A stretch of 64,000 nucleotides of DNA from the NCBI RefSeq assembly GCF_000738915.1, contig NW_026515638.1, positions 84,882 to 148,881 on the forward strand. The letters run 5' to 3'. The position numbers and the translations under genes are program-made. The notes beneath the pieces were generated by a model. The model searched no databases and was not told the origin of the DNA. It saw only the letters and a list, made by a program, of their open reading frames with translations. The DNA comes from Nematocida ausubeli (Eukaryota). Below, piece after piece: positions 12,672-16,874 of the stretch (positions within the stretch are counted from its first letter, which is position 1; each line of letters opens with the position of its first letter).

Positions 12672-14981
12672 ATGCATAGTAAGTGCATTGCCGTAATAGG
12701 CGGATATAAAGCAGGCAAGACATCTGTCCTAAAGAACCTTTGCATAAATCACACAGAAGACTTAACCAAGCACGGTTTCGGAACAATTCTTCATAAAAAA
12801 GAAACACTTTCCGGTCTCTTGGAATTTGTCGAATTTTCCATCCCCCCAGACACTCCATTCCCATACGATCTAAAAATATTTGATGCAATCTTCTTAGTCA
12901 TAGATATATGCGCATATGAAATAGATGAGATAATTAAGATAACCCGATATAACCCGAGGTCACCCATTATCATACTATTAAACAAAGTTGATGCGATATT
13001 TAAATACGGCACAAAGAGAGCAACAAGAATATGCAAAGAAATAATGCAGGAGATTGAAGAAGTAATAGGTAATGGGAATAAATCAAAACCCGATATAACC
13101 CGAAATAACCTGTTTCAGCCCGATATAACCCGATATAACCCGAATAACCCGAATATAATATTTTGCATTGGAAGTTCATTTGGCTTCGGGATATTCTGTG
13201 GGAATGTCTGGGAATGGAAGGAAAAAGAGAAAAATATTCAGGAAATAATTGAAAATATACAGAAGGTAATGGAATATACAGAGATGCACTCCAGTGACAG
13301 AAAGAGACTATTCCGGAAATTAGGATATTCGGGTTATATTTCTAACGGAAAAATTAAAAATATAAAAAAAATTAGTGAGATATGCGTAAATGCTGTGGGA
13401 ATATTATCTTTACAGAAAATTTTGATCGAAGTTTTCTTAAAGGTCGAAACCCGATATAACCCGAGGTATCAAGAAGAGGAGATGGGAATAGGTGGGAGTA
13501 AATATATGGGGAGAGTATGGGATAATACTGGATTGGGTGAAATTTGGCAGGATAAGACTATGGAAAGTACGGGTTATTCAGCAAAAACCAACAAAAAACT
13601 GAAAAAAACAGAAACCCGATATAACCCGAGGTACCATAAAGAAGCAACAAGAGACAGTGAAAATGGACTAAACCCTCACATACACCTTCAGAACCACATA
13701 TATTCAACCAGACCCAGTGAGACCACTGAAACTAACCATCTTGACAATAATTTATTAAAAACCAAAAATATCCAGAATTCCTGTAGTGCAACGGTAATAG
13801 AGGTGCTTAAATCAGAAGGACCAGATAGAATAACCGTTCTATTAAAGGTGCACAATAAAAATATCACAAATATACGTTATAAAGGCATATTATTTAATAT
13901 AATTAAATATAACGGAAATATAACAGAAATTAACCGTATATATATACTAGATATATACGTAGACAAAGAATCGTATGGTTTAATCATAAAATTATATTTT
14001 GACCTTCGGGTTAAATCGGGTTATCTCCCAGGAATATCTGTTACTTTCAAGGGGGTACCACAGGAGATGAAAACAAAAATTATTGAAAAAATATTTGGAC
14101 ATTTTTCCGTTAGAATTAATTGGGAAAATAACGGTGAAAAATATTTTAACTTAAGAATATCTGCTTTAGGGCCAATATCCCTTCAGAATTTAATGAAAGA
14201 CGTGCATATGTTAATGAGTTCGCATAATTTGCAATTCGAGATTATTACGCCCATTTACAATAGGAGATTGACTGTAAAAGAAAAAATGAGTTTTTTATTA
14301 CCCGTCGGGGGCGACGAGCTTAGGATAGAAGTGGACTCAAACCTTATTTATCAAGGAATGCACAGGAGGATTGAGATTTGCAAGGAAAATAAAATTTTTA
14401 TTTTAGTTCCAGAGAATATTGCAGTGGAAAATCCTGAATTAATTGGGATATTTTCGAGTATCGTAAAGGATTTCCATGAGAATGTGGGTGAGGATAGGAA
14501 GATTGCGTGTATATCCTTTTTTATATCTGAAATTCGCATTAAATCTGGCCATCTCGGGTTATATCGGGTTTTGATGCAAGAATCCATCAGGATATTCAGA
14601 TCTTGGATGTCACGATTAGTTTATAGTCAAATTGAGTGCCATATTCAAATGGAGATAGTGTTCCTGTTGAAAATGAACTGTCCCCTTCCCTCAAATGACA
14701 CTTTCATCCAAAAAATAGCCCATTTTAGTACAAAATCAGTCATAAAACGGATAATAAAAAAGCATAACGGTGTTTCATTTGGGGTCAGGATGCTGCATGC
14801 AGGTTCCCATGGCAAGGTGACCTGTATTCTGCCCATCTCAGAATATACTGAATTTATGTCCACATTTAAAATATTCTTCAGTGAATTTACGGCCTACACA
14901 ATAGGCAGTGATTACAACGCGAATTCAACAGCAGAAAGAAGCGACACAATTAGTGAAGGGTTATTCTGGAAAAATAAATAG
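12672..14981 (+). CDS. Highly diverged EF-2-family GTPase (Snu114- or Efl1/Ria1-like)
   Basis: G1 GGYKAGKTS and G4 NKVD. Domain III-like ISALGPISLQNLMKDV...ITPIYNRRLTV. Domain V-like IKRIIKKHNG...VTCILPISEYTEF. ATG at 12672 follows CCC. Confidence 0.55.
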   Translation: MHSKCIAVIGGYKAGKTSVLKNLCINHTEDLTKHGFGTILHKKETLSGLLEFVEFSIPPDTPFPYDLKIFDAIFLVIDICAYEIDEIIKITRYNPRSPIIILLNKVDAIFKYGTKRATRICKEIMQEIEEVIGNGNKSKPDITRNNLFQPDITRYNPNNPNIIFCIGSSFGFGIFCGNVWEWKEKEKNIQEIIENIQKVMEYTEMHSSDRKRLFRKLGYSGYISNGKIKNIKKISEICVNAVGILSLQKILIEVFLKVETRYNPRYQEEEMGIGGSKYMGRVWDNTGLGEIWQDKTMESTGYSAKTNKKLKKTETRYNPRYHKEATRDSENGLNPHIHLQNHIYSTRPSETTETNHLDNNLLKTKNIQNSCSATVIEVLKSEGPDRITVLLKVHNKNITNIRYKGILFNIIKYNGNITEINRIYILDIYVDKESYGLIIKLYFDLRVKSGYLPGISVTFKGVPQEMKTKIIEKIFGHFSVRINWENNGEKYFNLRISALGPISLQNLMKDVHMLMSSHNLQFEIITPIYNRRLTVKEKMSFLLPVGGDELRIEVDSNLIYQGMHRRIEICKENKIFILVPENIAVENPELIGIFSSIVKDFHENVGEDRKIACISFFISEIRIKSGHLGLYRVLMQESIRIFRSWMSRLVYSQIECHIQMEIVFLLKMNCPLPSNDTFIQKIAHFSTKSVIKRIIKKHNGVSFGVRMLHAGSHGKVTCILPISEYTEFMSTFKIFFSEFTAYTIGSDYNANSTAERSDTISEGLFWKNK

Positions 14982-15371
14982 TGGATTAAGTCTTGTCAGT
15001 TTTCGGGAGAGGTGGATTAAGTCTTGTCAAGTTTAGGAAGAAGTGGATTAAGTCTTGTCATCTTTGGAAGGGAGTATAAAAAGTCTTGTCAAATTTATAA
15101 AAAGTGGAAAAAGTCTTGTCATTGTGGATTGAGTTTTGTCAAATATTATGCCATAAGTCTTGTCATTGTGGAAAAAGTCCCGATAAAGTGGATTAAGTCT
15201 TACACTGGGCGGAAAAAGTCTTGCACTAAGTGGAATAAGTTGTGATCTTTTAATATATGGAATAAGTCTTGCCATTGTGCCATAAGTATTGTCATTGTGG
15301 ATTAAGTCCTGGCACTGCGTAGTAAGTTCTGACAAAGTGGATTAAGTCTTGTCACTGTGGATTAAGTCCTG
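14981..15371 (+). repeat. Array 2 of GTGGATTAAGTCTTG (about 17 copies, forward)
   Basis: Starts at 14981, 15012, 15043, 15074, 15104, 15124, 15148, 15168, 15188, 15209, 15230, 15257, 15277, 15297, 15317, 15337 and 15357. Confidence 0.95.
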
Positions 15372-15411
15372 GCACGCCTTATATATAATTTTCCATGAAA
15401 ATTTTTTAAAA

Positions 15412-15873
15412 ATGGAGTTCAGCTGCTCAATTGACGAAGTAATCAAGAGAACCGAGGCAAAATCAGAGACAAGAAAGCAGAAAATTAAGGAAAAGAAGAG
15501 ATCAGACAAGGATAAGCTTATTTCCCAAGTTTCAGACCAAGAAGAGACAGAAAATGCACAAAATTCCCCCAAAAAAGGAAAATTAAGAAGAGCAGACAGA
15601 GTAGTCATATTAGACAAGGCATCAACCAACAATAGATCAGATCTCCCAAAAATAGAAGAAAAGGAACTAAAAGAAGTCCTTAAGATTGTCGTTAAGATTA
15701 TGAATACAATTCCAACAGAACCTGTTAAGCTAAATAAATTCCAGGAAGATGGTGACCCACACAGCAGAGCACAAGGAGAGAACCACTTAAGAAAGAGAGA
15801 CAGAACAGAACCCGCCGTATTCAAGAAAGGCAAGAAGATTGAGCCTAATAATAAAAGACAGAGAAGAAAGTAA
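15412..15873 (+). CDS. Small lysine/arginine-rich hypothetical protein
   Basis: 153-aa ORF from the ATG at 15412, with AAATTT upstream and purine-rich coding composition. Confidence 0.7.
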   Translation: MEFSCSIDEVIKRTEAKSETRKQKIKEKKRSDKDKLISQVSDQEETENAQNSPKKGKLRRADRVVILDKASTNNRSDLPKIEEKELKEVLKIVVKIMNTIPTEPVKLNKFQEDGDPHSRAQGENHLRKRDRTEPAVFKKGKKIEPNNKRQRRK

Positions 15874-16552
15874 GACTAATTATAACGGGAAATACATAGA
15901 GATAGACTAAATACAACAGAGTATGACTAAGTGTAACAGGATATATAGGGATATACTAAATATAACAGAGTATAACTAAGTGTAACGGGAGTATATTAAC
16001 TAGTCATAAATACAACAGGAGTATACTAATTATAACGGGAATATAGGTTAGTCATAAATACAACGGGAGTATACTAAGTATAACAGAGTATAGCTAATTA
16101 TAACAGGAATATACTAACTAGTCATAAACACAACAGTATAATAATAAATACAACAGGATAGACTAAATACAGTGGAATATAAGGATATGACTAATTATAA
16201 CAGGATAGACTAATTATGAATATACAAAGGGTATATAAGGGATAGACTAATTACAACGGGAAATTAGTCTATTTTACAACAGGATAGAATAAATATACTA
16301 AATATAGCAGAATTATACTAAATATACTAATTACAACAAGATATAACCCGAAATACAACAGTAATCTATAGACATAGACTAATTACAACAGAGTATACTA
16401 ATTACAACATACATTCCTAAGAATAGTCATAAATACAACAAGATATGACTAAATACAACAGAGTATACTAATTAGTCACAAATACAACAGTATCCCATAT
16501 ACTAATAATACTCAGCTAATAAATATATTATATTAACCATAAATATAACAGG
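15874..16552 (+). repeat. Array of motif B (GACTAAWTAYAACAG-like), forward
   Basis: Copies at 15874, 15905, 15925, 15954, 15974, 16004, 16024 and onward, spaced about 20 or 30 bp. Confidence 0.85.
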
Positions 16553-16595
16553 CAGTATGACTAGTTTATTACTTCAGGGTTATATTGGGTTATGG

Positions 16596-16874
16596 CAAGA
16601 CTTAATCCACCCTATCCCAAAAATGACAGAACTTAATCCACTTTGTCAAGACTTATGGCATGTTGATAAGACTTAATACACTTTTTATAAACTTGTCAAG
16701 ACTTATGGCATAATGGCAAGACTTAATCCACTTTTTATAAATTTGACAAGACTTTTTCCATCTTATCCCGAACCCGACAAAAGTTAATCCACAATAACAA
16801 GACTTTTTCCACTTTTTATAAACTCACTAAGACTTAATCCACTCCATCCCCAAGATTGACAAGACTTAATCCAC
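16596..16874 (-). repeat. Array 3 of GTGGATTAAGTCTTG (11 copies, reverse: CAAGACTTAATCCAC)
   Basis: Starts at 16596, 16627, 16647, 16667, 16697, 16717, 16747, 16778, 16798, 16828 and 16860. Confidence 0.95.

Follow-up and report, generated by a model that had tools for sequence, protein, structure and literature searches.

Budding yeast's point centromere is a single element of ~125 bp (CDEI-CDEII-CDEIII), in which two different asymmetric sites enclose a spacer of about 90% AT. In Candida tropicalis, a 12-bp motif is clustered on the centromere arms, is absent from the core and is oriented relative to it, and six of the seven cores are free of open reading frames (ORFs) while one carries ORFs (accessible text of PMC7292649). 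The centromeres of microsporidia are an open question, and the genome papers cited here have not located them experimentally. These organisms encode CenH3 (as stated in the accessible parts of PMC4359364 and PMC13174016), and regional centromere candidates, unconfirmed, have been proposed from sequence features in Microsporidia sp. MB (PMC13174016, same parts). On the other hand, the accessible text on the telomere-to-telomere Encephalitozoon genomes reports no point-centromere sequence and does not place centromeres (PMC10158259), and that of a nine-genome survey reports no centromeric regions (PMC12449221). Here we describe a locus within 64,000 nucleotides of Nematocida ausubeli DNA (contig NW_026515638.1, positions 84,882 to 148,881; this whole stretch is the window, and coordinates refer to it), in which a 15-bp motif, motif A (GTGGATTAAGTCTTG), forms five helically phased arrays inside an island of about 16 kb. 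The island and its phased arrays are the strong result; the feature is genuine and does not stem from faulty assembly. The locus has the look of a chromosome-level element, and the best single guess is that the island is a small sequence-marked centromere region of one N. ausubeli chromosome, to which we give a probability of roughly one half. The stem "centromer" has no match in the main text of PMC10393165, PMC12558613, PMC10759460 or a 2026 N. parisii preprint, and the literature searched, with subscription papers and the supplement of PMC3514677 outside its scope, yielded no location of Nematocida centromeres, no prior description of the locus and no occurrence of the motif as text.

Motif A is present in the window in 27 copies at no more than one mismatch (14 on the + strand and 13 on the - strand), where shuffled sequences hold 0.01 on average and none of 100 shuffles equalled 27. 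A weight matrix trained on the sites at 7-25 kb and then run across the whole window finds 46 copies, 23 per strand (shuffle mean 1.45, maximum 3), all of them within five arrays at 12.25-23.13 kb (Table 1), each of a single orientation; outside 12.2-23.2 kb the same scan places no copy near any gene of the window. Five arrays in 10.9 of 64 kb represent a clustering beyond chance (P about 0.003). Among the matrix copies GGA and AAGTCTTG are almost invariant, and positions 6-7 vary (TT or AA). The copies are helically phased: 39 of the 41 within-array spacings are at most 2 bp off a multiple of 10.3 bp (31 bp 13 times, 20 bp ten times, 30 bp five times), a phasing score matched by none of 5000 random spacing sets. 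Within the 31-bp units (n=13) mean identity is 93% in motif A and 54% in spacer of equal length, and within the 20-bp units (n=10) it is 77% and 44%, a contrast somewhat inflated because the consensus was taken from these same copies; the 30-bp units (n=5) have a spacer conserved at 84% and are found on both sides of the polarity switch described below. The arrays share hardly any long words, with one common 31-mer among the ten array pairs. Since the motif is kept while the spacers drift, and long common words are few, selection on site and spacing fits better than recent copying. A structured RNA was considered and rejected, because Rfam returns one tRNA only (tRNA-Arg) in the window and the folding of two array segments does not surpass that of shuffled sequence (z = +1.8 for one, -0.8 for the other). 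Paired-motif scans of metagenome, viral and prokaryote collections gave no match, which carries little weight because Nematocida is unlikely to be represented in them.

The arrays have exactly one convergent polarity switch, between 15,371 and 16,596, and all 46 copies, read as written, point into the gap of ~1.2 kb (15,372-16,595) that separates arrays 2 and 3, has no motif A and overlaps the island midpoint at 15,536. A previous sequence-only reading of this DNA had described the arrays at 12.3 and 15.0 kb as forward and those at 16.6, 18.0 and 23.0 kb as reverse, with one switch, and the matrix scan agrees on every array. It had also held that orientation is independent of gene direction, which the gene contexts of the five arrays bear out, since a forward array precedes the + gene at 15412 (41 bp from the array end), a reverse array precedes the + gene at 18254 (42 bp) and array 3 lies between 3' ends; and it had correctly put into the gap a small gene (15412-15873) and a block of a second motif, motif B (15874 to about 16550). 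Its broader proposal, that the arrays are chromosome-level signals rather than promoters, holds in part: array orientation ignores that of the genes, one array is flanked by convergent gene ends, and genes outside 12.2-23.2 kb have no array; that the polarity itself is functional we regard as somewhat doubtful. No two arrays resemble each other more than 2 and 3 (19 common 20-mers, vs 0-8 in the other nine pairs), which form a short degenerate inverted repeat round the switch. The best inverted match covers 100 nt with 76% complementarity; the longest exact one has 31 nt. If the five arrays were oriented at random, 8 of the 32 patterns would have one switch (P = 0.25), and 2 of 32, a post hoc count, would have it in this gap. 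The 153-amino-acid (aa) protein encoded in the gap has an identity of 99% with N. ausubeli records and of 45-63% with homologs from the rest of Nematocida, and has no convincing match in Pfam, PDB or Atlas; searches supported neither yes nor no for it as the motif binder or as a known kinetochore protein. Its family has no locus among 597 candidate metagenome stretches, a negative of little weight, Nematocida being unlikely in those collections. To the right of the switch lies a 217-aa gene (16923-17576) for which homologs were detected in N. ausubeli only, and its protein is fast evolving, being only 86% identical in one isolate, vs 97% there for the neighbouring 153-aa protein.

Table 1. Features of the island (window coordinates; motif A, B and C as defined in the text).
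Feature	Position	Strand	Description
Whole island	7339-23732		10-bp-periodic non-coding DNA with motifs A, B and C; nine genes
Motif-A array 1	12252-12524	+	9 copies; between 5' ends of two divergent genes
Motif-A array 2	14981-15371	+	14 copies; between a 3' and a 5' end; left arm
Gene for 153-aa basic protein	15412-15873	+	Conserved across Nematocida; inside the gap at the switch
Central motif-B block	15874-16552	+	GC 0.27; no motif A; 17/17 copies on +; candidate core
43-bp element with 11-bp inverted repeat	16242-16284	+	Exact duplicate at 19516-19558; hairpin z = -8.2
Motif-A array 3	16596-16874	-	9 copies; right arm; convergent 3' ends on both sides
Motif-B block	17732-17949	-	7 copies, all on -
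Motif-A array 4	17963-18212	-	10 copies; between 5' ends of divergent genes
Largest motif-B block	19051-19907	+	24 copies, all on +; no motif A
Motif-B block	22798-22970	-	7 copies, all on -
Motif-A array 5	23015-23134	-	4 copies; between a 3' and a 5' end

The island that holds the arrays is distinct in composition. Against mononucleotide shuffles, 13 of its 14 non-coding segments have a 10.2-bp periodicity at p <= 0.02, vs one (p about 0.04) of the 11 gaps of at least 370 bp outside it; GC content is 0.316 inside and 0.380 outside, the coding fraction 57% and 77%, and GC at third codon positions is lower in the island as well (0.338 vs 0.399; 9 vs 27 genes, p = 0.013). Its repeats are dominated by motif A, motif B (the GACTAATTACAACAG / TAGTCACAAATACAACAG family) and motif C (ATAACCCG). 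The motif-B blocks are each one-directional and follow one another along the island in the order -, +, +, -, +, -, +. Motif C reaches into genes, with 17 copies in island coding DNA (1.81 per kb) vs three outside (0.08 per kb), and this DNA signal appears to override coding. At least two of the nine island genes have insertions not present in relatives: a 769-aa GTPase-like protein (gene 12672-14981) and an 899-aa TPR protein (gene 20025-22724) exceed their orthologs by about 100 residues of low-complexity insertion, with repeated TRYNP peptides encoded by motif C in the former and motif-B-like MTN/KTN repeats in the latter. The motif-C peptides number 4-7 per 769-aa protein in the four N. ausubeli copies counted and 0 in seven homologs from other species; the domain GTP_EFTU is found in five of six aligned members of this protein and not in the window copy. 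A mirror symmetry of the whole island was considered and rejected, as motifs B and C do not flip at the centre.

Other repeats were observed alongside these. Both copies of the 43-bp element sit in the two large motif-B blocks, and sequencing run X21 contains hundreds of reads related to it, so that the element may be conserved in another species. The tandem motif-C stretch at 13079-13375, within the 769-aa gene, has a depth of 11,347 in run X4, vs about 15 on unique DNA, of 347 in X8 and of about 700 in the raw reads of X21, with many short "goes back" joints; a high-copy 10-bp repeat like this stretch is present in these samples, possibly telomeric or satellite, and motif C carries GGGTTA on the opposite strand. 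Further 10-11-bp repeat families (TTAACCAT/TTAACCGT and TTAACAACAA) are found at 7339-8062, 10690-11000 and 23141-23480, at both island ends and in the same orientation. Outside the island, TAG-rich and CT-rich simple-repeat blocks (26900-27650 and 33200-33490) are without 10-bp periodicity. The ORFs of the window are compact and intronless. Directly to the right of the island (23733-26794) are a DDX54 helicase gene, the tRNA-Arg and a two-box HMG gene, the last of which, 2.5 kb from the island and in one cluster with NERG_01188, is the HMG gene published as a mating-type candidate in Nematocida (PMC3514677, section 6). Should the island prove a centromere, this HMG locus would be tightly centromere-linked. 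At the far end, an open-ended ORF (62333-64000), whose N-terminus is signal-like and which matches nothing in Pfam, is presumably a member of the large secreted gene families of Nematocida.

Signs of further arrays come from contigs and reads of four of the 24 listed runs, compared with the stretch 11,000-19,900, which covers arrays 1-4. Summed contig depth is 53-103 (X4) and 43-127 (X8) on motif-A bins vs about 11-26 on most unique bins, a ratio of about 3-8 in both runs, where summed depth is not copy number and alleles of diverged isolates add to it. Of the 567 X4 records aligned, 240 are <95% alike, and groups of 4-7 contigs run out of the arrays into sequence absent from the compared stretch. 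The depth is raised although the arrays of the window have almost no common 31-mers, which suggests further arrays in the genome. Run X21, which bears another species label and has no depth on most unique genes, contains many B-like and C-like reads and has a depth of 0-8 on motif-A bins; motif A may be lineage-specific and recent, layered on an older locus of motifs B and C.

According to the centromere reading, a sequence-specific protein would bind motif A, and the spacing of two, three or five helical turns would bring the bound copies to the same side of the helix or phase nucleosomes. The two arms, pointing inward, would delimit the gap free of motif A, and the motif-B block in it, as the putative core, is predicted to carry CenH3 nucleosomes and the kinetochore. 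Several observations weigh against this reading, in addition to the inflated motif-to-spacer contrast and the ambiguity of summed depth mentioned above. There is no GC trough at neutral sites (fourfold-degenerate GC, island vs outside, p = 0.51), and 500-bp windows near 36 kb, outside the island, are just as AT-rich. The AT-richness, repeat density and low coding come together with nine genes inside the island, and the 153-aa gene fills about 40% of the gap between the arms (462 of about 1,220 bp). The arms themselves are only 0.3-0.4 kb long and 76% alike over 100 nt, with no kilobase homogenised repeats, and arrays 1, 2 and 4 are 41-148 bp from start codons, a promoter-like placing. The motif-B blocks change direction five times, so that repeats of this island switch direction freely, and taken by itself the single flip is weak evidence; with one window to judge from, it is suggestive and lacks power. 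Finally, to judge from the X21 reads, motif A may not be conserved between species.

Among the rival explanations, the one that takes the flip for an artefact or by-product (misassembly, or inversion of part of a set of uniformly oriented arrays) is highly improbable; the sequence-only reading had itself raised both causes. Contig pieces join arrays to neighbour genes in window orientation in X4 (11003-12267, 14289-15003, 16277-16610, 16728-17858 and 18120-19041) and in X8 (12504-13093, 14314-15003, 15357-15913 and 18156-18711); what speaks for an artefact is that, among the matches listed (24 pieces), none in either run crosses 15,919-16,277. The genes flanking the flip are consecutive in three other assemblies, where a shared contig was deduced from accession order and contig size: NEAUS03_1358, 1357, 1356, 1354, 1353, 1352, 1349 and 1347 are in order on a 34,054-bp contig (1354/1353 flank the flip), NERG_01179-01189 keep the gene order (NERG_01183/01184 flank it), and KAI5138239-41 are three consecutive accessions round it, with a 4,655-bp contig. 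As other isolates keep gene order and array orientation, misassembly is unlikely to be the cause. The order is also the same across species (NEIG_02089/02090/02093, NEIRO03_2169/2170/2173, NEPAR06_2056/2053, NEMIN01_1932/1933 and NEMAJ01_0783/0782). An inversion of arrays 3-5 (16.6-23.1 kb) would set the TPR gene beside the 153-aa gene and is excluded by the order in relatives, the two being three loci apart in N. ironsii and N. parisii, as in the window; an inversion of arrays 1-2 with the 769-aa gene would preserve gene order, and an old inversion of this kind keeps a small probability. More credible, and still improbable, is neutral local repeat turnover, in which minisatellites of 10-bp units build up where recombination is low or repair error-prone, short tracts are copied either way round from one gap to another nearby and the flip is due to chance. 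The odds of one switch given above (8/32) and the alternation of motif B agree with it, as do the low-complexity insertions in island genes, absent in relatives, and the five 30-bp units, whose 84% identical spacer on both sides shows copying; moreover, repeat sequence is 2.1-fold higher in N. ausubeli than in N. parisii (accessible text of PMC3514677). However, spacer length is held while spacer sequence drifts, few long words are common to the arrays and other long gaps of the window have different, non-periodic repeats. Turnover alone also leaves unexplained the regime of this region, which a centromere would explain.

Somewhat less probable again is that the arrays are orientation-independent sites of a general regulatory factor that keeps promoters and gene ends nucleosome-free or insulates the genes of the block. 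Factors of this kind typically have phased multi-site arrays, and upstream activator-type sites act in either orientation, so that independence of gene direction is compatible with them. The distances of arrays 1, 2 and 4 from start codons, and of array 3 from a 3' end (49 bp), would suit this explanation, and five candidate promoter elements, among which motif B or C might figure, have been reported in N. parisii, in a supplement (Cuomo et al., PMC3514677, main text as accessible). Nevertheless, no gene outside 12.2-23.2 kb has motif A, the flanking genes are without evident common function, array 3 adjoins no promoter, and 4-14 copies are a large number where the untranslated regions of genes are very short. 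The helicase and HMG genes next to the island bring in another possibility, a distinctly improbable one, namely that the arrays act in cis for a mating-type-like locus, as a silencer, a recombination enhancer or a polar fork barrier. The HMG protein, however, has two HMG boxes, as chromatin HMGB proteins do, and the contigs hint at arrays at other loci. In addition, the accessible accounts dispute the link of the Nematocida locus to the zygomycete sex locus (PMC3056290) and describe the two alleles of the former as without amino-acid difference (PMC3514677, section 6). A centromere-linked mating locus would, in turn, be compatible with the centromere reading. Very unlikely is a replication origin or convergent fork trap, in which polar sites load an initiator or halt forks at the centre: phased repeats round an AT-rich core may recall iteron origins, and convergent polar sites Ter arrays, but cumulative GC skew has no switch at 16 kb, word skews follow genes and repeats, and eukaryotic chromosomal origins are not known to have phased iterons. 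For the origin, terminus and SMC-loading site that the sequence-only reading had offered beside the centromere, no evidence in favour was found.

The centromere reading could be extended to the whole genus. In this version, every Nematocida chromosome would have a gene-interleaved, sequence-defined centromere, in which helically phased arrays of a lineage-specific 15-mer close in on a short core rich in AT, with a signal strong enough to enter adjoining coding DNA and replaced from one sister species to the next while its syntenic position stays fixed; we consider this unlikely, if less so than the rivals above. The number of islands to be expected would follow from the chromosome number of N. 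parisii, about seven to eight (PMC3514677), with seven long-read contigs (preprint), both as given in accessible text. If every chromosome were so marked, a genetically marked centromere would have arisen independently at the base of the fungi, and microsporidian centromeres would gain sequence addresses. With a compact island marked by a 15-bp motif, the centromere question becomes directly testable in the Caenorhabditis elegans-Nematocida model, and a true centromere could offer a stability element with which to transform microsporidia and a framework in which loss-of-heterozygosity maps can be read. Even if the centromere reading is false, the phased arrays still point to a new sequence-specific DNA-binding system in a reduced genome.

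Compared with known systems, the locus stands apart from several familiar classes of repeat. A transposon-derived repeat (miniature inverted-repeat transposable element or long terminal repeat) was rejected, since the arrays have no shared long body and none of the 37 window proteins carries a transposase- or reverse-transcriptase-type Pfam domain. Nor does motif A recur upstream of many genes within the window, as a promoter element would. The arrays are also unlike the long homogeneous tandem arrays of a satellite centromere, being 0.1-0.9 kb long with 2-6 tandem units at 70-88% match. With the microsporidian candidate sex locus (transporter-HMG-RNA helicase; accessible text of PMC3514677, section 6, and PMC3056290) the locus shares the helicase and HMG genes directly beside the island; those accounts, as far as accessible, do not mention flanking motif arrays, and the mating role is disputed. 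As in the budding-yeast point centromere, sequence-specific sites flank an AT-rich core, but here there are 46 copies of one site across 11 kb and the core is 73% AT. The likeness to the Microsporidia sp. MB candidates is that of a single gene-sparse region of distinct composition, proposed from sequence in a microsporidian; those regions are GC-rich, CpG-methylated and retroelement-rich, whereas this island is AT-rich, without a retroelement ORF and marked by short phased motifs. Finally, the inverted-repeat (IR) motif centromeres of C. tropicalis have long homogenised inverted repeats, in place of which N. ausubeli has arrays of 0.1-0.4 kb in five separate intergenic gaps, with helically phased copies, genes between the arrays and in the core, a motif sequence that is lineage-specific and a centromere function that is here only inferred. 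As long homogenised arms and an ORF-free core are both missing, the locus is not classed as an IR-type centromere. What it does have in common with C. tropicalis is a short motif clustered at one locus that lies on both sides of a motif-free core and is polar about it, with 46 of 46 copies pointing inward.

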